Source: an uncultured virus (IMG/VR IMGVR_UViG_3300046517_000572) (taxonomy: Duplodnaviria; Heunggongvirae; Uroviricota; Caudoviricetes). From it: a stretch of DNA of 20,000 nt. The notes below the pieces were generated by a model that saw only the letters and a list, made by a program, of their open reading frames with translations, had not been told where the DNA came from and did not search any database. Numbering within the stretch: position 1 is the first letter of the stretch; every line of letters begins with the position of its first letter. Shown here piece after piece: positions 1-19,917 of this stretch. The position numbers and the translations under genes are program-made. The DNA is taken from IMG/VR virus record IMGVR_UViG_3300046517_000572. One strand, given 5' to 3'.

Positions 1-499
1 GCAGATCGAACTGTTGCTGCAATTCCTTCTGCACCGTGTTGAGGTCATTGCCCTTCTGCACGCCGCGCATCACGATGCCCTCGACGCGCTGGAGATGCTG
101 CGACGCGATCGACTTGATCAGCCCGACGTTCTCGGTCACCGCGCTGTTCATCACCGCCTGTATCTCGGGCGAGACCTTGAACTGCACGGTCCAGCCCGCC
201 TGATCGAGTAGCTGCTCGATCCGCTGCGTCGAGTGCGCCGCCGACCGGGCGCCCCACTGGCCCGCGACATCGGGGGCGATCTCATCGAAATTCGACTGCC
301 AGCGGTTGCCGAGTTCTTTCATCGTATCGATGATACGATTAGCCGCGCGGGGGTCTTCGCGCCAGCGAGCCGACAGCCAGTAGTCCAGCGAATTGTTCAT
401 CCGGTCGATCGCGCGCCAGAGCCGCGAGCGGTAGACCGCGACCACGCCCGCATTGGGATGCACAGGCGGCAGCACGTTAGGTCTGGGCGGCTGCGCCAT
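1..499 (-). CDS. Phage minor head / head morphogenesis protein (MuF / SPP1 gp7-like); 3' end runs off the window
   Basis: Absent from the ORF track (no stop in window). Manual translation from ATG at 499: MAQPPRPNVLPPVHPNAGVVAVYRSRLWRAIDRMNNSLDYWL...AGWTVQFKVSPEIQAVMNSAVTENVGLIKSIASQHLQRVEGIVMRGVQKGNDL. GAGG RBS upstream. The ENVxLIKSI...VEGxVMR segment and the position downstream of the portal are typical of this family. Confidence 0.8.
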   Translation of the reverse strand, partial: MAQPPRPNVLPPVHPNAGVVAVYRSRLWRAIDRMNNSLDYWLSARWREDPRAANRIIDTMKELGNRWQSNFDEIAPDVAGQWGARSAAHSTQRIEQLLDQAGWTVQFKVSPEIQAVMNSAVTENVGLIKSIASQHLQRVEGIVMRGVQKGNDLNTVQKELQQQFDL

Positions 500-523: not shown

Positions 524-1114
524 TTACGCCTTGCGCGACCGCGCACCGCCAGCAAGGAAGTCTCTTGTGCTGGTGCTGCCCGACAAATGACTTTCGAGTT
601 CAGCCGCCGTATGTCCTTGCGCGCTAACGCTACCGTCCGTCACATGGGTCCAGACGTTATTGCCGAGATCGTGGCGCGGGTAAACGTGAATGCGGTCACT
701 CGTTCCCTTCTCCCGGCTTTTATACATCTTATGCACAAGGTGGTCTCTCACCGGATCGTCCGATCCTGCTGTGCCCAATTCGACATAGCCGTGCTTGGCG
801 ATCGGCGCCTGCATGGCGCGGTGGTAGTCCTGCATGTCCTTGGGCAGCGATGACAGGTGTTTCGCGTTGTGCGCGCCATCCTCGCCGCCCACGCCACCGC
901 CGCCGCTGGTCCACTCGCCAGAGGCGGCGCGTGGCTGATCGGCGTCCTGCGCCCCGGCTTCATCTTCAGAAAAATCTGGCAGTGAGTCGATATCCACGAT
1001 CTCGTCGGGGCTTTCGATCGGCTTGGTGCCGAGTGCTTCCGCCGTGAAATCGTGGATCACCTTGCCGCCGACTGAGGCGACCCCCATCAGGGGCTTTTCG
1101 GTGTTGTCCGACAT
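524..1114 (-). CDS. Hypothetical, probably virion-associated protein with acidic leader and the AQDA-DQPRAASGEWTSGGGG tag
   Basis: ATG at 1114 overlaps the portal stop (TGATG), with GAGG upstream. GC3-rich codons. Lies between portal and MuF and shares a peptide motif with the portal extension. Confidence 0.8.
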   Translation of the reverse strand: MSDNTEKPLMGVASVGGKVIHDFTAEALGTKPIESPDEIVDIDSLPDFSEDEAGAQDADQPRAASGEWTSGGGGVGGEDGAHNAKHLSSLPKDMQDYHRAMQAPIAKHGYVELGTAGSDDPVRDHLVHKMYKSREKGTSDRIHVYPRHDLGNNVWTHVTDGSVSAQGHTAAELESHLSGSTSTRDFLAGGARSRKA

Positions 1115-1615
1115 CACTCGCCCTCTACATGCTTGCCCGAGATCATCCGGATCGTGGTCTGCGCCCCCGGCACGATCTCGTAGACCTCGAATTGCTGGCC
1201 GTGCATCAGTAGTAGTTCATTCTCGTTCAGACCGGAAACCGTGTCGGCCCCCAGCGCGCGGGTGCCCTTGCGACAGGTCATCTCCAGGATCACCGGCTTG
1301 CCGCTGAACGCGGCCTTGTCAGCCATGCTCGTGGAGACAAATCCCTCGGTGTTGTAATAGCACGGCAGCCCGGCCTTGAGACCAGCCAGCCAGCCGGGGA
1401 TCAGCTTGCCGATCGTGGTCGATCCCACACCGCGCCGCAGCACCACGTCCTCGGTCAGCTTGGTTTCCTCTCGCTTGTAGAGTGAATGAACCGCCTTGAC
1501 CGGGGCGACCGCGTGCGAGGTATCGGCATCGATCTGACCGCGCAGCACGCCGTTCATCGAACCCGAGCCGCTGCCGCAGTAGGACTCGGTGGCTGACTTG
1601 GCTTTATGATCCACG
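1114..1615 (-). other. Domain: VIP2/C2-like (R-S-E clade) mono-ADP-ribosyltransferase
   Basis: Y..S..MNGVLRG helix, VLRRG (Arg at 1432-1434), FVSTS (STS at 1327-1335), ENELLL (E-x-E at 1216-1224). Confidence 0.88.
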
Positions 1616-4600
1616 CTGTCCCAGAACTTCTGCTCCAGTGACGGCGCGATCTTGCGCGCCTTCGCGGATTTGGTGCTGGATAGCTGGGTGGCGCCATTAT
1701 AGGTTTTATTCGCCCAGGCGAGAACCTCCGCGTCAGCGTGCTTGGTGCTGTTGGGCTTCGATGGTGACGGCGGCGCCTTGGGTGCCGCTGGTGCCGCTTT
1801 CGGCGCGGCTGGCGTCGGCACGCTAGGTGTCGCGGCATCGGCAAACCCGACACCGGGGATCGGTTCGCCGCCCAGCGACTTGATCCAGCTATTGGCGAAC
1901 TTGGCACTGTAGCCGTCTGGATAGTTCACCACGGTCGGATAGGTCTTGAGTTGCTCGACCTTCTCCTCGTTGGTGCCTGTGCCTGACGCGATGTCGTAGA
2001 GGTTCTGCTGATGCTGCGACTTGGCGTTCGGCGCCGGTCCCTGCGGTGGCATCGGTGGCTTTGACCAGCTTGCGGCGACCTCGTTCTTCAGCTTGTTGAC
2101 CTGAATCTCGGCGTAGTCCTTATGCCCCGGCGGCGCAAACGTGTTTTCAATGATCGTGTAATTGATGGCGTCGATCTTCTGCTGCGCCGTCAGCCCAGGA
2201 TCGGCCACGATGTCATCGACCTTGCCTTTCATGCCGATATTCTTGGGCGTTGGCGGGGTGGCGCCGTTCTCTTGCGCGACCTTGGCCATGATCACGGCCT
2301 TGGCGTAGCCGTGTTCGGCGCTGCCTTCCTTGATCACCCCGCTGGCGAGGCCCTTGTTCATGTAATCCAACAGCCCGGTCGATTTGGTGAATCCCTTGTC
2401 TGCCATCGAGTGGATGTTCACGATGGTGCCGTTGCCTTTGAACATGGCGGGCAGCGGCGGAATGATCCCCTGTTCGATGCCCGCGATGGACTGCGCCGCC
2501 GTGCCCGGTTCCGCTGTCGGTGGCTCGCCCTTGATCGCCGCGATCAGCTTCTTGGCGTAGTCCCGCGTCGGCCCCGAACCGCCCTTGGCGTCGCTCTCAA
2601 GCTGCTTGATCTTGTTGTCGGTCTTCCAGTGACCGTGCGCGGCGACTTCCCACATCTCTTGCTGCACCGCCGTGCCGTCATGCGGTGGCAGGCTTTCGCC
2701 CATTTCCTGTTCAAGCTGGTTAAGCCCCGCCGTCGCCTCGCTGATGTCGTGACCCTGGAGTTCGGCAGCTTTCTTCAGGTCTTTCAGCGTATCGATCTTC
2801 TGCTGCAAATGCCCTGGCCCGGTCAGGATCGCATGCACCGCCGCGATCGGCACCTTGCCGCCTTGTGGCGTCGGTGGCGGCGCGGCTGGATTTAGCTGGA
2901 AGTTCTCCAGCGGATCAGCCGCCGCCATCTTCTCCATCTCGGCTTCGGACGGCGCGCCTTGCGAGGGTGGCCCCTCGACGCCGCCCTTCATCTTCACCGC
3001 CTTGCCCAGCGCGCCCTTCGGCATGCTGTGGTGATCGGCCAGATGGTCGATCAACTGGTTCATGAAGCCAGCGACGTTGCTGGATTTCATCTTGCCAGCT
3101 TCGGTCTTCATCAGCGTGGCGAGTTCGTGCGGATTATCATTGCCGGAAGCGATATGCTCCTCCAGCGCCTTTTTCATCTTGGCGCCAGCCGGTCCCGCAT
3201 ACTTGGTTAATTCCGGCACCGGCTTGGACGGTTTCGGAGCCGAGCCACCGCCGCCGCTCGCGCTGGTGGCGAACTTGCCGCCCTCGTCGCGTTTGACCGC
3301 TGACTCGTCCCACTCACCGATCATCGCATCGGCGGCGCCCGCGAAACTCTCGATCGCCTCGTCAGACGCGGGCAGCGCATCGGCGCGCTTCTTGATGTCG
3401 TTCTTGCGCGCGATCAGCTTGTCGGCCAGCGCATCTTTCTCGGCTGCCGTGCCAGGACCGTGGGTGTGAACCGCCGCCCTGATCGCGTGATCGGGAATCG
3501 AGGTCACCCGCTCCGCCGATTCCCGCAGCCGCCGGGGCGACATCTCGCCAAACACTTTGGCAGCAAGCGACTTCTGGCGCAGGGTATCCCACTCGGTCGC
3601 CTCGTTGCCGAACGCCTCGCCCTTGGGACCGCCTTGGGCGCGATAGAGCAACGCGCCGCCGGTATCGAGCGTGTGCATCTCGCCGTCGAGGCGGGCTTGG
3701 TTCCAGTCGTTCTCGTGCTGGCCCATACCGATCACGTCCCAGTTCGCCAGCCACGCATGGGTGGCGAAATTCTTCTGTGCGGCGCGCCGGTCCTCCTTGT
3801 TGTCGATGTCGATGTTCTGCTTGCCGTGGTGCCACTCCGACGCCGTGCCCAGCTTGCCGCCAACCGTGGCGGGCATAATCGGCAGCACGGGCGACCGCGC
3901 CATCTCGTAGAGCCGCGTGGCCAGCAACTCGTTCTTGGCGTGGCTCTCGCTCTTGCTCTCCTTGGCGTAGAACCGCCGCCCGCTGTCGGGGTCTTCGTAT
4001 TCGCCGCCGGGGTTCGATCCCAGCGCCCCGCCGACCTTTTTCATCTTGGAGAAATCGAGCGGGTGGTGTTCGTCGCCGCCCTCGATCGTATGCTGCGCGA
4101 TCAGCCGGTCGATCGGCTTGTTGAGGTGCTGGTGGAGTTCACCGGGCGGCACCAGCGCCACCGCCTCGCTCTCCCAGCCATGCTCAGACGGCGAGCCGCC
4201 GATCCGGCGGGCGTAATAGTAGCGCGCCTGCGAGGTGTCGCGCTGGGCGTCGCCAGCGAAGCCGGTCAGTTCGACCCGCAGCCCCGACTCCTCGAAAGCC
4301 TCCTTGATCGCGGTCGAGCGCAGGCTGTCGCCCTTATCGACGCCGCCCTTGGGGAAGCTGGCCTTGTAGCCGCCATAGGCGTTGCTGGGCCGGATGGTCC
4401 AGACCCGCCCGTCCGGTTCCTGCACGATGACGCCCGCCGCCTGCTTGCGCCCACCCTTGAGCGGCGGCACCTCGGGTTCCTCAAACTCCGGACCCTTGTC
4501 GGCCTCCGCCTGCCAGCCCTCGCTGGTCGTCGGGTGGTCGTCCCACGGCTTGAACGCCACGCCATGCAGGCTGCCGCTGGCGGGCTTCTTGGTGCTGAAA

Positions 4601-7104
4601 GTGACCGCACCGGCCGGAACGTCAGCATTGCTGGCGTTGGTTTCATGGGAAACACCCGGCAGGGAGGCTGACGTTCCGGCGCCTGTCTTGGGGGCCTTGG
4701 CGCCTTTGGCGCGCTGCGCCTGCTTGGCGGTCTTCGCGGTCGCGGCGCCACCGCCGGAACCGAACTGGCCATTATCGGCGCGCTTGATCTTGCTTTCGTC
4801 CCACTCGGGATCAGCGTCCTGTGCCTGCTTCGCCGGTCGGCGCAGCATCGATTCTGTGGTCGAGAAATCGCGCTTGCGGCCCTTGTTCGGGGTGAAGCCG
4901 AATTGCTTATAGAAATCGGTCAGCCGGGCCACGCTACTGGCGCCGAAATGTGTCGATGGCGTCAGCGCGATGGTCTTGCCGTTCGCGTCGGCATACGCCG
5001 TCAGGCTGTGCATTGCCTGGGTGCCGATGCCCTGACCGCGTGCCTCCTTGGGCAGCGCGATCTTGCTCAGTGTGATGGTGTCGCCGTGTTCGCTCAGATG
5101 ATGGCTGATGCCGTGCTGGTCCCAGTGCGCCTCGACATGCGCCAGCGTCGCCGGGGCAGCACCGCCGCCCGAACCGAACTTACCAGACGCATCGCGTGGC
5201 TCGTTGGGATTGAAAGCGTCGGCGCCAAGCTGGACATGGCCGCGATCGTGCGGCCCCAGGTGGACATGGATCGCCGCGTCGGGGTCTTGGGTCACCACTT
5301 TGGTGTGGCCCTCGCCCACTTTCAGGCCGTTTTCGTCTTCCTCGTCGCGCGAGCCTTTGTTGGGGTCTGGCGCTTTGGGCGATCCACCCGCCTCGCCCAT
5401 CTTGCCAGGACCACTGGTCACGGGCGCAGGCGAGCCGCCAGCGGGTTTCGACAGACCGGATGGGCCAGCGCCGCCGGGGGCGCCTGGAGGCCCACCGGGT
5501 CCGCCGGGAGGCCCTCCAGGGCCACCACCTCCGCCCATGCCGCCCAGTGGGTCGGGTTCCTGATTAGGCGGCGGAGGCGCAGGGGTGGAGAGGTCCAGCC
5601 CCTGATAGGGGCTGTCGGATTCGTCGGCAAGCTTCTGCCTGATCTCGTCGGGCGAGAGAACCCCCGCGTTGACATAGACCGCGTCGAGGTCGGCGTCCGA
5701 CTTGCGCGCGGCGGCCTCCTCCTGCTCCGACATCTCGCGCAGCGGTTCCCAGGCATGGGTGATCGCCGGATCGATCTCGCCAAACAGCGATAGCTGCATG
5801 ATGTTGAGGATCGTGGTCAGGTTGGCGTCAAAGAAATTACCCTGACTGGCGTGGATGAACTGCGCCCAGACCTGGAGTTCGCCCTCCGATGTCGCGTTCA
5901 GCCCAGATGGCGAAATTCCCAACAGCACGACAAGAGGAATGCCAACAGCAGAAGCCATATGCTCCTGCGACTGAGCCTGGAGATGATCGAGCGATCCCAG
6001 CGGCGCCGAGACATTCTTGAAATCCTCGGTGGTCTTATCCAACGCCATCAGGTTGGAATTGTCGCGGAAGTAATTGAACAGCGCGGCGCGCATTTTCATC
6101 TGCGTCGCGGCGCCCGCGTTCATCACGCTGCCCATGTTGGTCATCAGCACGGGCGTCGAGAAACTATGAATGAGATCGGAGACGCTCTGACGTGTGCGCA
6201 GCCAGTTGTCCACGTAGGGTTTCGCCATCTGCGACAGTGACAGCCCGCCGAACGAATAGGCGGGCTTCATCATGTCGGGCATCTCGCGGCCGATGAACGG
6301 CAACAGCCGGGTGCGATGCACCTCCTTGCCCATCACCCACCACGTCTGCGGCAGATAGAAATTCTCCTTCAGCGGATCGTTGGCGTTATACATATTCGGA
6401 TAACACCACATCGGCTCGACCACGCGGACGCCTTTAAGCCCGCCCTGCTTGATCATGCGCGGATCGGGCGGCAGCGGTAGTTTCATCTGCGCCCGATCGT
6501 CGCCGTCGCCCATGTCGAGGTAGAGATGCGAACGACCGAAGAACCCGTCCATCAACGCCAGGACGGTGAACTTCTCGCGCAGCTTGTGGTGCTTGATGCA
6601 GGCTTCCAGCGCGCTGATCTTGTCCGACTTGTCATCCTTGCCCTTGGCCTGGATGCGAAACCATCGGCGGGTCATATCCTTGGCGATGGTCTCGGAGATG
6701 CGGCGATACTCGGTGCGCTGCGACAGTTCCGCCAGATAGGGGAAACCGAGCCAGTGCATGCCCTCGGTCAGCAGCCCGTTGAAGCCGCCGTAATTGAACA
6801 TCGGGTTGTTGACATCGTCCATCGCCATCGGACGCACGTCTTGCGGCACCACGCCGGGCAATGGCTGTGCGGGCGTGAACAGGCGGCGGATATCGTCCGG
6901 TGTCGCGGTGCGCGTCGAGTAAAGCTGGAACGGCGTCGCGTTGTCCTCGCGCAGCGCGCCCATGTTGATCAGCGAATGATAGATCGCGGCGGGATCGAAC
7001 CCTTGGGGAGACGCTGACGGGGCCGGTGGCGCGGCTGGAGTCTGGGGCGCAGCGTCACGCGCCAACAGCCCCAGCAAACCCCACAGGTAATCGGCAATCG
7101 CCAT
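1114..7104 (-). CDS. Portal protein (DUF1073-type) fused to GNAT, Nudix, kinase-like, repeat and ADP-ribosyltransferase modules
   Basis: Single 1996-aa ORF directly after terL. Residues ~90-505 show portal-like motifs (GFPYLAELSQRTEYR, GKEVHRTRLL, KPAYSFGGLSLSQ, IPLVVLLGISPSGLNATSEGEL, GVLSPDEIRQKL), followed by a Pro/Gly linker and enzyme motifs. Confidence 0.9.
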   Translation of the reverse strand: MAIADYLWGLLGLLARDAAPQTPAAPPAPSASPQGFDPAAIYHSLINMGALREDNATPFQLYSTRTATPDDIRRLFTPAQPLPGVVPQDVRPMAMDDVNNPMFNYGGFNGLLTEGMHWLGFPYLAELSQRTEYRRISETIAKDMTRRWFRIQAKGKDDKSDKISALEACIKHHKLREKFTVLALMDGFFGRSHLYLDMGDGDDRAQMKLPLPPDPRMIKQGGLKGVRVVEPMWCYPNMYNANDPLKENFYLPQTWWVMGKEVHRTRLLPFIGREMPDMMKPAYSFGGLSLSQMAKPYVDNWLRTRQSVSDLIHSFSTPVLMTNMGSVMNAGAATQMKMRAALFNYFRDNSNLMALDKTTEDFKNVSAPLGSLDHLQAQSQEHMASAVGIPLVVLLGISPSGLNATSEGELQVWAQFIHASQGNFFDANLTTILNIMQLSLFGEIDPAITHAWEPLREMSEQEEAAARKSDADLDAVYVNAGVLSPDEIRQKLADESDSPYQGLDLSTPAPPPPNQEPDPLGGMGGGGGPGGPPGGPGGPPGAPGGAGPSGLSKPAGGSPAPVTSGPGKMGEAGGSPKAPDPNKGSRDEEDENGLKVGEGHTKVVTQDPDAAIHVHLGPHDRGHVQLGADAFNPNEPRDASGKFGSGGGAAPATLAHVEAHWDQHGISHHLSEHGDTITLSKIALPKEARGQGIGTQAMHSLTAYADANGKTIALTPSTHFGASSVARLTDFYKQFGFTPNKGRKRDFSTTESMLRRPAKQAQDADPEWDESKIKRADNGQFGSGGGAATAKTAKQAQRAKGAKAPKTGAGTSASLPGVSHETNASNADVPAGAVTFSTKKPASGSLHGVAFKPWDDHPTTSEGWQAEADKGPEFEEPEVPPLKGGRKQAAGVIVQEPDGRVWTIRPSNAYGGYKASFPKGGVDKGDSLRSTAIKEAFEESGLRVELTGFAGDAQRDTSQARYYYARRIGGSPSEHGWESEAVALVPPGELHQHLNKPIDRLIAQHTIEGGDEHHPLDFSKMKKVGGALGSNPGGEYEDPDSGRRFYAKESKSESHAKNELLATRLYEMARSPVLPIMPATVGGKLGTASEWHHGKQNIDIDNKEDRRAAQKNFATHAWLANWDVIGMGQHENDWNQARLDGEMHTLDTGGALLYRAQGGPKGEAFGNEATEWDTLRQKSLAAKVFGEMSPRRLRESAERVTSIPDHAIRAAVHTHGPGTAAEKDALADKLIARKNDIKKRADALPASDEAIESFAGAADAMIGEWDESAVKRDEGGKFATSASGGGGSAPKPSKPVPELTKYAGPAGAKMKKALEEHIASGNDNPHELATLMKTEAGKMKSSNVAGFMNQLIDHLADHHSMPKGALGKAVKMKGGVEGPPSQGAPSEAEMEKMAAADPLENFQLNPAAPPPTPQGGKVPIAAVHAILTGPGHLQQKIDTLKDLKKAAELQGHDISEATAGLNQLEQEMGESLPPHDGTAVQQEMWEVAAHGHWKTDNKIKQLESDAKGGSGPTRDYAKKLIAAIKGEPPTAEPGTAAQSIAGIEQGIIPPLPAMFKGNGTIVNIHSMADKGFTKSTGLLDYMNKGLASGVIKEGSAEHGYAKAVIMAKVAQENGATPPTPKNIGMKGKVDDIVADPGLTAQQKIDAINYTIIENTFAPPGHKDYAEIQVNKLKNEVAASWSKPPMPPQGPAPNAKSQHQQNLYDIASGTGTNEEKVEQLKTYPTVVNYPDGYSAKFANSWIKSLGGEPIPGVGFADAATPSVPTPAAPKAAPAAPKAPPSPSKPNSTKHADAEVLAWANKTYNGATQLSSTKSAKARKIAPSLEQKFWDSVDHKAKSATESYCGSGSGSMNGVLRGQIDADTSHAVAPVKAVHSLYKREETKLTEDVVLRRGVGSTTIGKLIPGWLAGLKAGLPCYYNTEGFVSTSMADKAAFSGKPVILEMTCRKGTRALGADTVSGLNENELLLMHGQQFEVYEIVPGAQTTIRMISGKHVEGE
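1860..2880 (-). repeat. About five degenerate ~55-70-aa protein repeats separated by Pro-rich spacers
   Basis: Recurring elements QQKIDTL / DNKIKQL / QQKIDAI / EEKVEQL and DYAKKLI / GYAKAVI / DYAEIQV / KFANSWI, each unit preceded by a PP-containing spacer. Confidence 0.55.
3385..4056 (-). other. Domain: PI3/PI4-kinase / HipA / CtkA-like atypical kinase
   Basis: Gly-rich loop GGALGSNPGG, FYAK (Lys), KNELLA (Glu), WLANWDVIG...N catalytic loop, LDTGG (DFG-equivalent). Confidence 0.75.
4090..4450 (-). other. Domain: Nudix hydrolase
   Basis: AAGVIV strand, FPKG, and Nudix box GGVDKGDSLRSTAIKEAFEESGL (4279-4347), matching G-x5-[ED]-x7-[RK]E-x-x-EE-x-G-L. Confidence 0.9.
4830..5155 (-). other. Domain: GNAT acetyltransferase
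   Basis: Motif A LSKIALPKEARGQGIGTQAM (RGQGIG at ~5023-5040) and motif B RLTDFYKQFGF. Confidence 0.88.
5340..5590 (-). repeat. Low-complexity Pro/Gly linker between portal core and extension
   Basis: PAPPPPNQEPDPLGGMGGGGGPGGPPGGPGGPPGAPGGAGP... Confidence 0.8.
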
Positions 7105-7110
7105 GCAGCC

Positions 7111-8541
7111 TCAATTGAACGGTAGCTGACCTCCCAGCATGTCGGGCGGGAGATGGATGCCCAGTTTGCGCAACTCGTCAGGATCGAACCGCATCGGCGG
7201 TTGTTGAGCGATCGCGTTAAATGCTCTGCTCGTTGCGTCAGGATCGTCGTCGTGTGCGCCCTCGGGGAAGTTCTCTAATTCCGAGAACCACCGCTCGTTC
7301 CAGCGTCCGCGCAGCACCAGGATGTTGCCGACCTCGGCCTGCGAGGAGAACGGCCCGAACCGCGTGACTTTATCACCCGACTCAGGACTGCTTTCCACGA
7401 TGTAGCCTTGCAGCATGCGGGTCAGCGCCATGACTTGTGACTTGCCCGCCTGACCGGGGTCTTGCGGCAGCGAGGTGGTGTTGTCGTAGCCGTCCTGCAT
7501 GGCGTAATTCAGAATGCGCCGATCGACCTCGGCGGGCGAGCCTCGGAACGCGTCCGAGTGCAGGATGATCCAGCGCCCGTCATGCGTCAGCCCGATCTTG
7601 ACGCAGCACGTCCAGTCGGGGTCCGACGCGTCTTCCTGTTCCGATGCCGCCAAGTCCCAGCCGCGCACCGTCTTGGTGCAGACCGGCGGGATATCGACCA
7701 CCTGACACCACGAGCGGTTAAAATAGAACCCGGCTTGCGGGCGAATTTTCCAGTTGCCGTTGAGCAGGCGTTCCCGCTCGACCTTCGGCAGCATCATCAG
7801 GTTGCCGCGATAGCCGGGGTCGGATCGCGTCAGCGCCGGATTGTCGGCCAGCCGGGCAGCGACGAAGGTCAGACTTTTGATGTCTTCCTTGTCATAGCCG
7901 GTGGCGTTCATCGCCTCGCGTTTATTGTCGAACCACACAAGCTGATCATCAGCGCCGCGCACGAAATAGCGCACCACGCCGGAACGCTCCTGGATCGGAT
8001 AGCCGGTCTGCTGATCCACCCACCACTCGATCAGTTCCGCCACCCAGCTTCCGGCGTCGGCGTTACAGGTCGCCCGTATATACGGACGTATCGTGGTCGG
8101 TGAGCGGTTGCGGGAGATCAGATAGAAGAACTGCTGCTTGGTGAAGGTGGTCAACTCGTCGAAACAGATGCAGCCGATCTGGCTGCCGTGCCAATCGTAA
8201 ATCGTGTTCTCGTGTTCCAGATGCGCCAGCTTGACCATGCCGCCCGCTGGCCAGCGCCACTCCAGCCGATGGTTAATCGGATAGCCCTTGGCGTGGTAGT
8301 AGAGCTTCTCGGTCTCCGACCACAGCCCGCCAGGGCGGCGCAGATCGACCATCGTGCGGCGGAAGATCACCGTGTCGAAGCCGGGCACCTTCTGCGGATA
8401 GCGCACGCCCTCCAGCAACAGCGCGTAGGATTTGCCGGAACCGGCGGCACCGCCAAAGATCGCAATGTCGGCTTCTGAATTTAGAAACTTCTCCTGCGGA
8501 CCCGGCTGCGGCTGGATGCGTTTCCTGACCGCTTCAGCCAT
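7111..8541 (-). CDS. terL: Terminase large subunit
   Basis: Walker A GGAAGSGKS, Walker B CICFDELT, RATCN coupling motif, and C-terminal nuclease motifs RGWDLAAS, PQDPGQAGK, HDDDPDA. Confidence 0.95.
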   Translation of the reverse strand: MAEAVRKRIQPQPGPQEKFLNSEADIAIFGGAAGSGKSYALLLEGVRYPQKVPGFDTVIFRRTMVDLRRPGGLWSETEKLYYHAKGYPINHRLEWRWPAGGMVKLAHLEHENTIYDWHGSQIGCICFDELTTFTKQQFFYLISRNRSPTTIRPYIRATCNADAGSWVAELIEWWVDQQTGYPIQERSGVVRYFVRGADDQLVWFDNKREAMNATGYDKEDIKSLTFVAARLADNPALTRSDPGYRGNLMMLPKVERERLLNGNWKIRPQAGFYFNRSWCQVVDIPPVCTKTVRGWDLAASEQEDASDPDWTCCVKIGLTHDGRWIILHSDAFRGSPAEVDRRILNYAMQDGYDNTTSLPQDPGQAGKSQVMALTRMLQGYIVESSPESGDKVTRFGPFSSQAEVGNILVLRGRWNERWFSELENFPEGAHDDDPDATSRAFNAIAQQPPMRFDPDELRKLGIHLPPDMLGGQLPFN

Positions 8542-9043
8542 CGTCGGTGCCGGTCTTCAGGTCGTCCGCATCGCCCTCGATCGTCGGCGGCTCGTCCTCG
8601 GGGCGGTCGCGGCCGTTCTCGGGCAGATAGAACTGGAACGTCTCCTCGGGGTTGTCCTCGGACGGATCATACTGATCCGGCGTGTAAGCGCCCTTCGGTT
8701 GCCACGCCTCGCCGCCGTGGCGGTCGAGCCAGTATTTCGCCGCGCCGATATTGCCGCCCAGCGCCTCGCGCACGATGACGAACCCGACGCGCCCGGTGAT
8801 GTGGTCGCGGCCTTTGGCGATCTCGTGTTTGAAATGCTTGTTGAGCGTCGCGACGTTGATCTTGAGGATATCGGCCATGACCTGTCTGGCGGCGCCGTTG
8901 GCGGCGAACACCATGACCGCGTGGCGCTGGTCCTCGGACGGCACGAACTCGGGGATCGGTCCCTTGCTTTCGCCGCGTAGCAACCGGTGACCCGGCGTGT
9001 CGGGCACCGGCACCAAACCTTCATCCGGTTTAATTCGCGGCAT
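8534..9043 (-). CDS. terS: Probable terminase small subunit
   Basis: Overlaps the terL start. HTH-like segment (RQVMADILKINVATLNKHF), GNIGAAKYWLDRHGG motif, and acidic tail with FYLPENGRD. Confidence 0.75.
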   Translation of the reverse strand: MPRIKPDEGLVPVPDTPGHRLLRGESKGPIPEFVPSEDQRHAVMVFAANGAARQVMADILKINVATLNKHFKHEIAKGRDHITGRVGFVIVREALGGNIGAAKYWLDRHGGEAWQPKGAYTPDQYDPSEDNPEETFQFYLPENGRDRPEDEPPTIEGDADDLKTGTDDG

Positions 9044-10238
9044 CGGCCATTTCTTCCTCGGAGACCTCGATCATCGCCTCGCGGCCGGTGAACGCCTCCC
9101 AACGCTTGATCGTCACGTCGCAGTAGGCCGGGCTGATCTCGATCGCGGTGCAGCGCCTGCCGGTCATTTCGGCAGCGATGATCGTGGTGCCTGACCCGCA
9201 GAACGGATCGATGATCAGATGGTTCGGTCGCACCCATTGGGTGATGATATGCGCCACCTGATCGGCGGGACGCGGGCAGGGATGCTGACGCTGGATATTG
9301 TCGGGCTTGGCGACCTGGGACGCGGTATCGGCCACATGCCAGTCGCGGTTATCGGTGCGCGCGGTCCACGGTTCGGCGCCGGGCTTCCACCACACCAGGA
9401 TCGCGTCGTAGCCGTAATACATCGGCCCCTTCGCCATCAGCACGAAATTGCGCGCGCCGCAGAACAGCCGCCAGTCGCGCGGGAACCACGCAGCGAAATT
9501 GCGGATGTTACGCGGCGACTGCCAGAGGAACACGGGCGCGCCGTCAGGGCACAGCGCCTCGGCCTGTTCCACGATCCGCCAAATCCAGGCGCCATAGCCG
9601 CCGTCATAGGATTCCGGCGCGTCGTTGTGCTGATCGTAGCGAAAGCCGATGCCATAGGGCGGATCGGTCACCACGGCATCGCCGCCAGCGAGCCTGGGAA
9701 GCACGTCCAGGCAGTCGCCGCAGTAGAGGGTATGATCGCCCAGCCGCCACACGTCACCGGGCTGGGAACGCGGCACAGGCGGCGGCGCGGGGATGTCGTC
9801 GGGATCGGTCAGCCCGGCGGTCGGCTTGCCCATCAGGTTGCCCAGTTCCAGGTCGGAAAACCCGGTGAGCGACAGATCGAAGCCGGATAACTTGAGGTCG
9901 GTCAGTTCGGTCTGGAGTGTCATTTCGTCCCAGCCCGCGCTTAGGGCGAGCCGGTTGTCAGCCAGCCGGTAGGCGGCGATCTGCGCCTCACTCCAGCCCT
10001 TGGCGATCATCACCGGCACCGATGTCAGCTTCAGCTTGCGCGCCGCCAGCACGCGCCCGTGGCCCGCGATCAGGGTGCCCGCCTCGTCCACCAACACCGG
10101 CATCGAGAAGCCGAAGGTCGCGATCGAGTTGGCGATCTGCTCGATCTGGGCGAGCGAATGAGTGCGTGCGTTCCGCGCATACGGCATCAGCGTGTCGAGG
10201 TCGCGGCGCTCCACGCGGTCGGCTGGCCAGTCGGGCAT
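9030..10238 (-). CDS. ParB/Srx N-terminal domain fused to a beta-class N6-adenine/N4-cytosine DNA methyltransferase
   Basis: Start moved to ATG 10238 (GGAGG 5 nt upstream). ParB motifs PYARNARTHS, LIAGHGRVLAA, YRLADNRL. MTase motif IV DPPY precedes motif I DPFCGSGTT. Confidence 0.92.
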   Translation of the reverse strand: MPDWPADRVERRDLDTLMPYARNARTHSLAQIEQIANSIATFGFSMPVLVDEAGTLIAGHGRVLAARKLKLTSVPVMIAKGWSEAQIAAYRLADNRLALSAGWDEMTLQTELTDLKLSGFDLSLTGFSDLELGNLMGKPTAGLTDPDDIPAPPPVPRSQPGDVWRLGDHTLYCGDCLDVLPRLAGGDAVVTDPPYGIGFRYDQHNDAPESYDGGYGAWIWRIVEQAEALCPDGAPVFLWQSPRNIRNFAAWFPRDWRLFCGARNFVLMAKGPMYYGYDAILVWWKPGAEPWTARTDNRDWHVADTASQVAKPDNIQRQHPCPRPADQVAHIITQWVRPNHLIIDPFCGSGTTIIAAEMTGRRCTAIEISPAYCDVTIKRWEAFTGREAMIEVSEEEMADAAN

Positions 10239-10249
10239 GACGCCTCCCG

Positions 10250-10328
10250 AAAAAATAAATCGATTACCCCAAAGTTTTTTCTTGACTGCCGTCACGTAAC
10301 GGCTCATAAAGGCGCTGCACACGAAACC
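10250..10328 (+). promoter_or_regulatory. Repeated promoter cassette, copy 1
   Basis: AAAAATAAATCG-N8-AAAGTTTTTTCTTGAC; -35 TTGACT at 10282-10287; CGTCACGTAACG at 10290-10301; CATAAA after a 17-nt spacer; then CTGCACAC. Confidence 0.85.
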
Positions 10329-17191: not shown

Positions 17192-17300
17192 CAAGAAAAA
17201 ACTCATGGCGACGTTATTTTTCTTGTTTTTTTCTGTTATGTGACGCTACAAAGAGGGCGCGGGACACACCGTCCCGCTGCACACGAAACCACACATGGAG
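17192..17300. promoter_or_regulatory. Divergent regulatory region; degenerate copy 4 of the promoter cassette
   Basis: Inverted repeat CAAGAAAAA (17192-17200) / TTTTTCTTG (17217-17225); operator variant GTTATGTGAC at 17235-17244; hairpin GCGGGAC-ACACC-GTCCCGC at 17259-17277; CGCTGCACACGAAACC at 17275-17290 is identical to 10313-10328. Confidence 0.75.
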
Positions 17301-17308
17301 ATGTTAAA

Positions 17309-18175
17309 ATGCCGTTCGATGCTGCGATTTTGGGCGATGACTTCATGCCCATGAACCACAAGACCGTGCAGCCGATCGCTGCCACGGCGCTGAAAGTTTT
17401 CGATGCCTCTGGCAAGGAGATCGAGGGCTACCATCACATCTGCCGGGGCGATACCGGAGCGACCATCCGAGTCGCGCCGGATAGCTACGCGCTGGTGCAG
17501 AACGAAACCGCGATCGGGATCATCGAGGACAGTCTGAGCCGCTCACGGCTCGATCTGACCGACGCGCGGTTCGCCGCCGACTACTCCAGCGACGGCGCGC
17601 GGATGTGGGCGCAGTGGATACTGCCTGCCCACACCGCCACGGTGCGGCCCGGTGTCGAGGCCAGCCTCCGCGTCATCCTGCTGAACTCCTATGACGGCTC
17701 CTCGGCGTTGCAGGGCCGCGTCGGCTCGTTCAACTGGGTCTGCGCCAATCAGGCGGTTTCCGGCAAGGAATACGCGTCCTTCCGCTACCAGCACTCGGGC
17801 AAGATCGATCTGGTGCCTGCGATCGCGCGGCTGACCATCGCGGCCGAACAGCACGCGATCGAGGTCAACCGCTGGGAGCGGTGGGCCGACATCAAGGTCA
17901 CCGACCAGTTGGCGCGCAAGCTGCTCACGGCGCTGCCAAAGGCCAGCGAAACGACGGTGGACGGGTTGGTGCATGCGTGGCTGATCGCGCGCGATGAAGA
18001 CCCGGTGCAGGGCGGCGACAACCTGTGGTGTCTGGCGAATGTTTTGACCAACTGGGCGACGCGCGGCGACGGCGGGCGCGGTGCCGAGCGCGGTCAGCGC
18101 AACTGGGATCGTCAGGCCCACGTCGCGGCGCTGATGGAGACCAAGACCTGGGCGGAGGTCGAGGCGGTCGGCTGA
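17309..18175 (+). CDS. DUF932/DUF945-family phage/plasmid protein
   Basis: Start moved to ATG 17309 (GGAG RBS). Motifs YALVQN and LLNSYDGSSA...WVCANQ. Confidence 0.85.
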   Translation: MPFDAAILGDDFMPMNHKTVQPIAATALKVFDASGKEIEGYHHICRGDTGATIRVAPDSYALVQNETAIGIIEDSLSRSRLDLTDARFAADYSSDGARMWAQWILPAHTATVRPGVEASLRVILLNSYDGSSALQGRVGSFNWVCANQAVSGKEYASFRYQHSGKIDLVPAIARLTIAAEQHAIEVNRWERWADIKVTDQLARKLLTALPKASETTVDGLVHAWLIARDEDPVQGGDNLWCLANVLTNWATRGDGGRGAERGQRNWDRQAHVAALMETKTWAEVEAVG

Positions 18176-18860: not shown

Positions 18861-19237
18861 GCAATGACGAAGCCGAGTTCGATCCGACCGGGGCGATATC
18901 GGACCTGGAACTGCACGCCATTGCGAGACTCGGGATGATGGACGTGAACGCCATGCTGATGATCGTGATCAACCAGTGGGAAGGCATCAAAGAGCGCGCC
19001 GCCGGGTTGCTCGCCAAGGCGATCGTGATCGGCAGGGGTGAAACCGACGCCGAAGAAATCAAGATGCTGATGGTGGTGGCACTGCGCGCCACCGCGTTCG
19101 CGGACATCATCGACAAGATGCGGCAAGACCCGGAAATGATCGCGATGATCGAGCCTGATCCCGACGCGATCGAGACGACCTATCAGGAACTGCTGGCCCA
19201 GCACGAGGTGATCAAAGAGGAGCCAATACAGCAATGA
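18857..19237 (+). CDS. Hypothetical protein (126 aa)
   Basis: Start moved to ATG 18857 (ATGA overlap, AAGGG RBS). Confidence 0.75.
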   Translation: MSNDEAEFDPTGAISDLELHAIARLGMMDVNAMLMIVINQWEGIKERAAGLLAKAIVIGRGETDAEEIKMLMVVALRATAFADIIDKMRQDPEMIAMIEPDPDAIETTYQELLAQHEVIKEEPIQQ

Positions 19238-19917
19238 TCGAGATGGCTGATAACGCCTACGCCGCCAAGCTATGGGCTGACGGCAAGAGGCAGATCGAGA
19301 TCGCTGAGATGCTGGGCATGAACAGCCCGTCTCCGATCTCGTCGGGGATACGCGAGTTTCTGCTGGCGTATTCGCCCGCGTTCCGCGCTGACCCGTGGAA
19401 CACCACAGATCGACCGGGCTTTGTCGCGGGCGCGCTGAAAGCGTTTGAAAAGAAGCACGGCGCGGTGCCGGATGGATTCAGCAAGACGGTGAACTATGTG
19501 GCCTATGCCGACACGCCCCATCCGACACTGGCAAACCACGCCACCAAGCTGACCGTGGCACAGCGCATGGTGCTGCCGCTGACGGAATTGCCGCTCAGTG
19601 TGCGGCTGGAAAACTGCCTGACCAAAGGCAACGGCTTCAAACGCGTCGAAGACATCTACACGATGTCAGAACGGCAACTGATGCGAACGCCGAATTTCGG
19701 CAAGGTCTGCCTGCGAGAGTTACGCAAGGCGCTGACCGAACTCGGGTTGCCGCCGCTGAAGGAGGATGATGCCACACCGCCACAGCCCACCAACGGCGAC
19801 GCGACACCGCAGCTTCCGCCGCGTGTGCTGGACGCGCTGGAGGACATCATGGCGCGGGTGGTGCGTATCCAGGCGACGCTGACGGGGTTGCTGAACGAAC
19901 TGCGCGAGCGGGATTAG
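19234..19917 (+). CDS. HTH-like N-terminus plus RNA polymerase alpha-CTD-like domain protein
   Basis: GKRQIEIAEMLGM (HTH-like). LTELPLSVRLENCL...SERQLMRTPNFGKVCLRELRKALTELGL resembles the RpoA CTD. C-terminal coiled-coil-like segment. Confidence 0.85.
   Translation: MIEMADNAYAAKLWADGKRQIEIAEMLGMNSPSPISSGIREFLLAYSPAFRADPWNTTDRPGFVAGALKAFEKKHGAVPDGFSKTVNYVAYADTPHPTLANHATKLTVAQRMVLPLTELPLSVRLENCLTKGNGFKRVEDIYTMSERQLMRTPNFGKVCLRELRKALTELGLPPLKEDDATPPQPTNGDATPQLPPRVLDALEDIMARVVRIQATLTGLLNELRERD

Follow-up and report, generated by a model that had tools for sequence, protein, structure and literature searches.

A giant ORF in the portal position of an uncultured tailed virus joins a predicted DUF1073 portal to a chain of putative effector enzymes

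Introduction

Polyvalent proteins were defined by Iyer, Burroughs, Anand, de Souza and Aravind in 2017 (PMC5512222), with ADP-ribosyltransferases (ARTs), kinases, GNATs and nucleotidyltransferases as their protein-modifying domains. The same article names PBECR, 2H and InPase domains fused to portal domains, for example in the portal-InPase protein BcepF1.124, and infers that such proteins are injected. A 2022 survey of NAD+-ADP-ribose (NAD+-ADPr; PMC9503650) describes fusions of Nudix and ART domains to portal, MuF or protease domains, again with head packaging and injection inferred. Here we analyse a 20,000-nucleotide (nt) stretch of DNA from an uncultured virus of the Caudoviricetes (IMG/VR record IMGVR_UViG_3300046517_000572), called the window below. 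Between the genes for the large terminase (TerL) and a MuF-like head protein it holds an open reading frame (ORF) of 1996 amino acids (aa), which begins with a predicted DUF1073 portal and continues with GNAT, Nudix, kinase-like, repeat and ART modules. Considered together with its relatives, this giant ORF is likely to be the working portal of the phage, extended by a polyvalent effector chain, and its context favours a cargo packaged in the head.

The portals of E217 and Pa193, which are 765 aa long, have been modelled to residue 528, the end of the C-terminal barrel that projects into the head, and their residues 529-765 (237 aa) gave no density (PMC10329688, PMC11456595). A 2026 preprint on phi24B reports a polyvalent protein of 2811 aa, not a portal, which was detected in virions by proteomics; giants of this kind can therefore be packaged.

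Results

Modules of the giant ORF

The first-pass annotation of the window had described one uninterrupted frame whose first ~505 aa form a DUF1073 portal, followed by GNAT, Nudix, kinase, repeat and ART modules with intact catalytic motifs. Our analysis confirmed this anatomy. The segment-by-segment use of Pfam and AlphaFold which that annotation had proposed identified portal, Nudix and ART modules by Pfam, and the GNAT and the kinase-like module were also modelled. The modules have the following coordinates.

1114..7104, minus strand: whole ORF (portal and polyvalent cargo); ATG start, 1996 aa, no internal stop
5590..7104, minus strand: portal domain (Phage_portal_3/DUF1073), aa 1-505; Pfam, PHROG and PDB sequence matches
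5224..5589, minus strand: Gly/Pro-rich low-complexity linker, aa 506-627; from sequence, with relaxed constraint (pN/pS, a crude count of synonymous and non-synonymous differences, 0.16 over aa 506-650)
5152..5223, minus strand: motif copy 1, aa 628-651; degenerate, F-N-P-N-E-P-R-D-A-S-G-K-F-G-S-G-G-G
4819..5142, minus strand: minimal GNAT acetyltransferase-like domain, aa 655-762; Acetyltransf_1, phrog_10691, RGQGIG and model
4738..4809, minus strand: motif copy 2, aa 766-789; E-W-D-E-S-K-I-K-R-A-D-N-G-Q-F-G-S-G-G-G
4090..4464, minus strand: Nudix hydrolase domain, aa 881-1005, with the Nudix box at aa 920-942; Pfam NUDIX
3340..4074, minus strand: CtkA/HipA-like kinase-fold domain, aa 1011-1255; alignment A1, model and Foldseek
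3247..3318, minus strand: motif copy 3, aa 1263-1286; E-W-D-E-S-A-V-K-R-D-E-G-G-K-F
1855..3207, minus strand: helical repeat region, aa 1300-1750; profile of four ~60-aa units
1117..1707, minus strand: ADP-ribosyltransferase domain, aa 1800-1996; Pfam ADPrib_exo_Tox and R-S-ExE motifs

The PF06381 profile matched aa 123-475 with an E-value (E) of 1.9e-80 (270.7 bits against a cut-off of 33.8; profile positions 3-356 of 357), and phrog_146, annotated as 'portal protein', matched aa 92-517 (E 1.7e-106). Comparison with the sequences of solved portals revealed matches to 9b41_L (gp19 portal; E 1.1e-43), 8fvh_O (E217 gp19; E 2e-40) and the Pam3 portal (E 8e-12). Judged by its sequence, aa 1-505 is a DUF1073 portal homologous to the solved portals of E217 and Pa193. 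The C-terminal extension of the window portal begins at a place equivalent to the end of the barrel in these two structures.

For the GNAT, the Pfam assignment is marginal: Acetyltransf_1, at 21.5 bits, only just passed its cut-off of 20.7, and three further GNAT profiles stayed under theirs. The segment also matched phrog_10691 (E 3.3e-25) and contains the acetyl-CoA motif RGQGIG at aa 689-694. Its AlphaFold model, built from the window copy and seven homologues in viral contigs (alignment A2), had a predicted local distance difference test (pLDDT) score of 72.8. The listed Foldseek matches of this model were all GNATs (Naa50, AtaT, TacT, RimI and others) except 4crz_B, whose title names no fold. 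The best size-matched neighbour of the ~105-aa domain was the 96-residue anti-CRISPR acetyltransferase AcrVA5, with a TM-score by target (TMt) of 0.71 and a root-mean-square deviation of 3.1 Å; this modelled likeness may hint at anti-defence and is a lead only. The same GNAT family was found in a 2157-aa ORF with an LPD22 'large polyvalent protein' domain (locus L009), and Pfam detected no LPD domain within the window protein.

The NUDIX profile matched aa 886-998 (E 1.9e-12; 47.8 bits against a cut-off of 21.1). The canonical Nudix box is G-x5-E-x7-R-E-U-x-E-E-x-G-U; the box of the window protein reads G-x5-D-x7-K-E-A-F-E-E-S-G-L, and its residues G920, K934, E935, E938, E939 and G941 are invariant in all 51 aligned sequences.

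The AlphaFold model of the kinase-like domain, calculated from six sequences (pLDDT 74.4, predicted TM-score 0.78), kept a helical C-terminal part. Foldseek returned 118 matches at E ≤ 1e-3, kinases among them. Helicobacter pylori CtkA was the best (E 1.2e-7; TM-score by query, TMq, 0.63), followed by RIPK2, aminoglycoside phosphotransferase (APH), PI3K and HipT. Residues K1048, N1121, D1123, N1135 and D1147 are invariant in 110/110 sequences, and GSNPGG, N1121-x-D1123 and D1147-x-G-G are invariant or nearly so in the same number; these residues may represent the glycine loop, ATP lysine, catalytic loop and metal-binding Asp of a kinase. The family is large, with 3675 representative clusters at E ≤ 1e-3 and 725 at E ≤ 1e-30. 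When the kinase alignment profile was compared with PDB sequences, the sole hit was a surface-layer beta-propeller which aligned with the GSNPGG loop and was discarded as spurious.

Four repeat units are supported by a profile (aa 1408-1472, 1473-1531, 1614-1681 and 1682-1746), and two more were seen by eye only. Each unit has a Pro-rich start followed by helices. The four-unit profile detected three to six tandem copies in the long portals P0008, P0009, P0148, P0152, P0139 and P0135 (independent E to 3e-13), where they usually stand just upstream of the ART. A BLASTP self-comparison of aa 1296-1790 revealed nothing beyond the self-match, and ungapped 30-aa windows over the same region scored 35 at best, with shuffled sequences averaging 32.8 and reaching 44; this is not significant. 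A PHROG search with the kinase and repeat segments returned no family.

At the C-terminus, ADPrib_exo_Tox matched aa 1821-1981 (E 4.3e-10; 39.7 bits against a cut-off of 23.4). R1891, S1924-T-S1926 and E1961-N-E1963 are invariant in 8/8 sequences, and weak PDB sequence matches pointed to C3 exoenzymes and Lmo0066. The module is predicted to be an arginine ADP-ribosyltransferase of the R-S-ExE type, similar to C3 and Alt.

Genomic context and complete relatives

The genes surrounding the giant ORF are all encoded on the same strand.

8534..9043, minus strand: 169-aa ORF in the small terminase (terS) position; sole match phrog_12540, function unknown, E 1.6e-11
7111..8541, minus strand: large terminase TerL, directly upstream of the giant portal ORF; Terminase_6N/6C, phrog_979 E 4e-152
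524..1117, minus strand: 197-aa ORF, no family matched; overlaps the portal stop codon by 4 nt
2..499, minus strand: MuF-like head morphogenesis gene, running off the window; phrog_324 E 9.8e-29

Six nt separate the TerL stop from the start of the giant portal ORF. The 8534..9043 ORF is called terS-like by position alone. In an identical contig (L003) the full-length MuF has 266 aa (phrog_324, E 7.3e-60) and no effector domain. The gene order is therefore terS-like, TerL, giant portal ORF, 197-aa ORF and MuF; the order terS-terL-X-MuF given by the first-pass annotation was right except for the one small gene between X and MuF.

A single PF06381 match was found inside an ORF of 1461-1827 aa in five of five related virus records, three of them 100% complete and two with terminal repeats. 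One complete relative, G002 (71.7 kb, 64% guanine-cytosine content), shows the order TerL, giant portal (1458 aa), a 123-aa ORF, MuF (271 aa), head-maturation protease (489 aa, phrog_2229) and major head protein. It also encodes a tail sheath, a baseplate and an integrase and is therefore a temperate myovirus; the complete-genome relatives are temperate myoviruses of 64-72 kb. Among the 36 of 88 G002 ORFs that were scanned, no portal-family match was detected outside the giant. The small ORF without family that separates the giant portal from MuF was observed in both genomes, with 197 aa in the window and 123 aa in G002 (46622-46993).

To place the cargo, we classified 77 kinase-bearing ORFs in IMG/VR loci (L021-L097) with our own profiles. 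The kinase-like domain was portal-fused in 25 and fused to DUF2213 in 13; the head protease of G002 is matched by DUF2213 at its N-terminus (E 5e-14). For another 11 ORFs the portal is a separate gene of the same locus, frequently of normal size, and the cargo gene can directly follow it. No portal was seen within the stretch fetched for the other 28, among which are giants (up to 5869 aa) and ORFs of truncated loci. Pfam analysis of 40 further kinase-domain proteins revealed DUF2213 in eight, MuF in one, a terminal topoisomerase IB in four and Nudix plus ART in many. The same cargo is thus found on the portal, on the head protease or free-standing, all of them head-internal, and this is the strongest contextual support for packaging.

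As a separate observation, positions 1-268 of phrog_30637 ('unknown function', 1119 positions) align with the portal and positions 727-907 with the G002 head protease; this family seems to have been built on a portal-protease fusion.

Distribution of long portals

The first-pass annotation had also proposed a survey of long DUF1073 portals for variable C-terminal domains. In a search confined to lengths of 1097-3493 aa, 8000 scored candidates included at least 286 long DUF1073 portal clusters at E ≤ 1e-3, with C-terminal domains that do vary. PF06381 was present in 120 of the 120 matches listed, ADPrib_exo_Tox in 80, NUDIX in 50 and PF23474 in eight. PF23474 is Acb1, a validated enzyme family directed against the cyclic-oligonucleotide-based anti-phage signalling system (CBASS); in P0018 it occupies aa 564-707, directly after the portal. 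Other long portals listed carry ART (PF01129), InPase, topoisomerase IB or intein/Hint domains. The latter (Intein_splicing, Hint_2, PT-HINT) were seen inside the portal domain of P0008, P0060, P0063 and P0100, and the portal match of P0100 is in two pieces (aa 36-380 and 620-749).

Searches of the same 120 listed proteins with segments of the window protein (phmmer) detected the kinase-like domain in 110, the Nudix in 50, the ART subtype of the window in nine and its GNAT in one. Hence the constant passenger is the kinase-like domain and not the ART. Nudix and kinase are adjacent in long portals, in either order.

Among cultured phages, tblastn matched 880 of 50,697 records, none of which covered at least 80% of the query. 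The best-ranked rows covered 20-22%, corresponding to the portal alone or to Nudix and kinase alone (Pseudomonas phages Dolphis, Touem01 and Jeremy). At this sensitivity, the collection yielded no isolated phage with the portal fusion. The class is known mostly from metagenomes. Dolphis, Touem01 and Jeremy are Pseudomonas phages of 90-95 kb whose Nudix and kinase-like modules show ~45% identity and are not portal-fused. In Dolphis (L002, MT711888.1) these modules extend over gp117 (1222 aa, 'ADP-ribosyltransferase'), gp118 and gp119 ('nucleotide phosphatase') at 4060-9072. The three phages might offer a culturable model of this cargo.

Conserved motif at module borders

Of the three motif copies in the window protein, one precedes the GNAT, one precedes the Nudix and one follows the kinase-like domain, each marking a module border. 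The motif reads [FW]-x-E-x-x-H-P-R-x-x-x-G-K-F, and in relatives A-E-[FW]-x-E-S-K-H-P-R-D-x-D-G-K-F-x-S-G-G; all three window copies are without the H-P pair. A loose pattern anchored on R...G.F was found 233 times in 121 long portals and 26 times in shuffled sequences. At positions outside the search pattern, 344 instances showed 79% E, 74% H, 68% P and 72% F/W.

Save for one chance-looking match, the motif is confined to the giant ORF both in the window and in G002. Kinase-bearing ORFs have 0.55 copies per 1000 aa against 0.019 for the remaining ORFs of the fetched loci, a 29-fold higher density. Of these remaining ORFs only a few contain the motif, and most of them are portals or neighbouring genes. 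Free-standing kinase proteins of 263-290 aa have the motif at one end. No copy was present in the LPD22-type giants that share the GNAT (L009, L012), and the motif is therefore not general to polyvalent proteins. Neither the main text of PMC5512222 (supplementary files apart) nor a text search of the literature yielded a mention of it. The motif may act as a site of cleavage or as a signal for packaging or translocation.

Assembly and selection on the gene

IMG/VR contigs with other sample numbers match the gene with 100% nucleotide identity (L003 over aa 249-1996, L004 over aa 1-1432, L006 over aa 1-1043), and at least 70% of its sampled words are present in 24 soil or rhizosphere metagenome runs, which may stem from one campaign and include no RNA run. 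The junctions between domains were examined in the contigs, not the raw reads, of four runs not marked as a possible source, at a depth of ~5x. Thirty of 30 gene bins were covered in three of these runs and 29/30 in the fourth, and each domain junction was bridged by single contigs with 0 differences.

4272-6243, X4 record 15: spans portal, linker, GNAT and Nudix start
4114-5692, X8 record 30: spans the same junctions as X4 record 15
3739-4135, X8 record 29, and 4029-4282, X4 record 14: span Nudix to kinase
2620-4041, X5 record 19: spans kinase to repeats
1434-3487, X4 record 10: spans kinase end, repeats and ART

Read mapping had been suggested at first pass as a safeguard against misassembly; the identical contigs under other sample numbers and the bridging of every junction by contigs of other runs now serve this purpose. 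As far as contigs can show, misassembly is refuted.

A diverged variant (L005) shows 97% aa identity over aa 1-1447 with an open frame and many synonymous differences. By the same crude count as above, pN/pS between the window and L005 is 0.013 for the portal, 0.02 for the GNAT, 0.04 for the Nudix, 0.07 for the kinase and 0.16-0.17 for two linkers. These low values in the modules compared with the linkers indicate that the enzyme modules are selected as protein, while the linkers are freer to change.

Variation among co-occurring phages was also observed. In runs X5 and X8 a contig joins position 1305 to 1495 via 23 other letters (depth 10.7 and 15.3), which represents a co-occurring variant with 189 nt of the ART core (window 1306-1494) replaced. 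Other contigs depart from the window sequence at 5462, 4365, 3322, 2994, 1512 and 1288. Several of these departures are close to a module border, a pattern suggestive of cassettes being exchanged between co-occurring phages.

Other genes of the window

Just upstream of the packaging genes lies a 430-aa fusion of a ParB N-terminal domain and an N6/N4 DNA methyltransferase (9030-10322, minus strand; phrog_498, E 2.2e-93). A DUF932 protein of 311 aa (17240-18175, plus strand; E 1.7e-16) belongs to phrog_1221, a PHROG also present in the complete relative G002. The 227-aa ORF at 19234-19917 (plus strand) contains the C-terminal domain of the bacterial RNA polymerase alpha subunit (PF03118, E 1.8e-12), which is unusual in a phage. 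T4 Alt ADP-ribosylates the alpha subunit of the host RNA polymerase, and the pairing of an Alt-like ART with an own copy of the alpha C-terminal domain in one phage may merit attention.

Discussion

Proposed mechanism

The portal with its effector chain is probably packaged in the head and delivered with the DNA, for host takeover or anti-defence. Since the portal nucleates procapsid assembly, every subunit would bring its cargo into the interior of the head. The portal dodecamer would thus have up to 12 tails, each of ~157 kDa and together ~1.9 MDa, inside the head above the barrel; by our own estimate this equals ~3 kb of DNA by mass, which plausibly fits a 64-72-kb head. Together with the DNA, the enzymes would pass into the next host and be active ahead of phage gene expression. 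ART, kinase and GNAT could then modify host proteins and the Nudix could destroy a nucleotide, in the service of takeover or anti-defence. Delivery by injection and the copy number are what we infer, and so is cleavage: release of the cargo would most likely require a cut in the linkers, perhaps by the head-maturation protease that lies two genes downstream in relatives, and this is the least supported step of the scheme. The relatives include an anti-defence cargo, Acb1, in the eight of 120 listed long portals mentioned above.

Several points weigh against this interpretation. A covalent tether to the portal bars ejection, and Pfam found no peptidase domain within the 1996-aa protein, so that release of the cargo would need a cut by the head protease or another enzyme; the window stops short of any protease gene, and the head protease was seen in relatives only. 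Within open-access papers and bioRxiv, no virion proteomics, structure or infection data were found for long DUF1073 portals. The related genomes were searched for PF06381 and not for other portal families (e.g. PF04860, PF05133), and the G002 scan left out two ORFs of at least 300 aa (373 and 1089 aa) that cross locus borders. As to the enzymes, the calls of GNAT and kinase depend on medium-confidence models from alignments of eight and six sequences. Foldseek gave no match for the GNAT model at E ≤ 1e-3 (best 1.9e-3). No Pfam or PHROG family matches the kinase-like domain of the window, and only 3/6 aligned members of its family gave a weak HipA_C match (PF07804, E ≥ 0.004); its substrate may be a small molecule and not a protein. 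The first Glu of the canonical Nudix box is Asp in the window and Leu in 48 of 51 relatives.

Alternative explanations

The closest alternative is a variant of the proposed mechanism, which we consider possible although the odds are somewhat against it. Here the portal would only carry the chain into the procapsid, and the head-maturation protease would cut it at or near the motifs. A mature portal core of ~500-600 aa would remain, with the enzymes loose inside the head in the manner of T4 Alt and the internal proteins. T4 Alt is processed on packaging. The head-maturation protease two genes after the portal in relatives would suit this variant, and so would the motif, with its position at module borders, its excess over shuffled sequences (233 matches versus 26), its conserved flanking positions (68-79%), its 29-fold higher density in cargo ORFs and its place at one end of free-standing kinase proteins. 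T4 Alt, moreover, is packaged and injected (PMC5512222). However, the three window copies lack the H-P pair, and docking or translocation would be an equally possible role for the motif.

An extended form of this idea is more speculative, and we would give it a low probability. In it, the motif is a portable load-into-head or cut-here signal that defines a modular cargo system of soil myoviruses. Motif-flanked enzymes would be loaded free, on the head protease or on the portal. From the portal chain the head protease would produce ~12 copies each of the acetyltransferase, the Nudix-kinase pair and the ART, in equimolar sets that are injected with the DNA, and the CtkA-like kinase, usually beside a Nudix, would be the core weapon.

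Cargo that acts in the producing cell or the procapsid is an unlikely explanation. It might shield the packaging machine from defences that sense portal or terminase, or modify phage proteins or DNA during assembly. The 2022 survey raises the same alternative for head-linked ARTs (PMC9503650). The covalent link to the portal speaks against ejection, and late expression would place at least 12 copies per particle at the assembly site. Occurrence of the same modules free or on other head-internal anchors nevertheless fits packaging better than local action, and from established knowledge of CBASS the Acb1 of relatives would be most useful early in infection.

Quite improbable is a mixture in which a frameshift, stop read-through or internal start yields short portals and only a few full-length subunits. 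Twelve tails of 157 kDa are bulky, and mixed short and long forms occur in other phage structural genes; against this, the gene has no homopolymer of six or more, no slippery heptamer was seen in the linker, and the frame is open in L005 and in at least 286 long relatives.

An artefactual long frame, in which chimeric assembly or a sequencing error turned a portal gene and the polyvalent-protein gene downstream of it into one, can be dismissed almost entirely on the evidence of contigs. The window is metagenomic, depth was only ~5x in the runs examined, and in some related loci the cargo is a separate gene after a normal portal. Against an artefact stand the 100% identity of three contigs with other sample numbers, the bridging of every junction with 0 differences in contigs from four runs, the open frame of L005 despite many synonymous differences, and the combination of PF06381 with cargo in 120/120 listed long relatives.

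Implications

If the cargo is indeed packaged on the portal and injected, portal delivery would fix its dose at 12 per virion, and portals could be used to load chosen proteins into phage heads. Injected phage proteins are prime candidates for anti-defence or takeover, because they act before phage genes are read. To our knowledge, very few of them have been tested. Temperate relatives with complete genomes could be sought as prophages.

Comparison with known systems

The first-pass annotation had presented the portal as a scaffold that loads effector enzymes for injection. Anatomy and head context agree with this concept, yet it is not new: portal-effector fusions together with the injection hypothesis stand in PMC5512222 and PMC9503650. 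The gene is a complete, selected and unusually rich case with four readable enzymes, and because the idea has already been published as a hypothesis, its value lies in testing and not in discovery. A search of open-access papers and bioRxiv found no bench study of a portal-cargo fusion, and three features were not found in print, namely the near-universal CtkA/HipA-like kinase cargo without a family model, the inter-module motif and the three-way placement of the cargo.

Like the polyvalent proteins of PMC5512222 and PMC9503650, the window protein has an N-terminal portal followed by effector enzymes. It carries at least two effector-type domains and belongs to a phage with a portal-terminase packaging system, in a late or virion gene context; both are among the features by which polyvalent proteins are recognised. 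The portal fusions named in the relevant passages of these two papers have one or two cargo domains, whereas the window protein has four enzymes and repeats. The kinase group described in PMC5512222 is without the C-terminal subdomain and comes mainly from the Verrucomicrobia-Chlamydia group and Bacteroidetes; in contrast, the kinase-like domain of the window keeps a helical C-terminal part in its model and is closest to CtkA/HipT. CtkA and HipA/HipT are its best structural matches, at 12-14% identity and with no family membership found at the sequence level.

E217 and Pa193 gp19 (PDB 8fvh, 9b41) share the portal family with the window protein; their tail comprises 237 aa of unknown nature, while that of the window protein has ~1490 aa with recognisable enzymes. 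Acb1, a 2H phosphodiesterase (PF23474), takes the first cargo slot in P0018, where the window protein has its GNAT, and is absent from the window protein.

The MuF polymorphic toxins of temperate phages (Jamet et al. 2017, PMC5576092) are head proteins adjacent to the portal with a variable C-terminal toxin or enzyme, ARTs included. Their anchor is MuF, with one or two copies per SPP1 capsid according to the same article, whereas in the window the portal is the anchor and MuF is bare. T4 Alt is an ADP-ribosyltransferase of the R-S-E type that is packaged in the head and injected with the DNA (PMC5512222). It is a free protein, in contrast to the window ART, which is attached to the portal and matches phrog_3895 with an E of only 2.1e-6.

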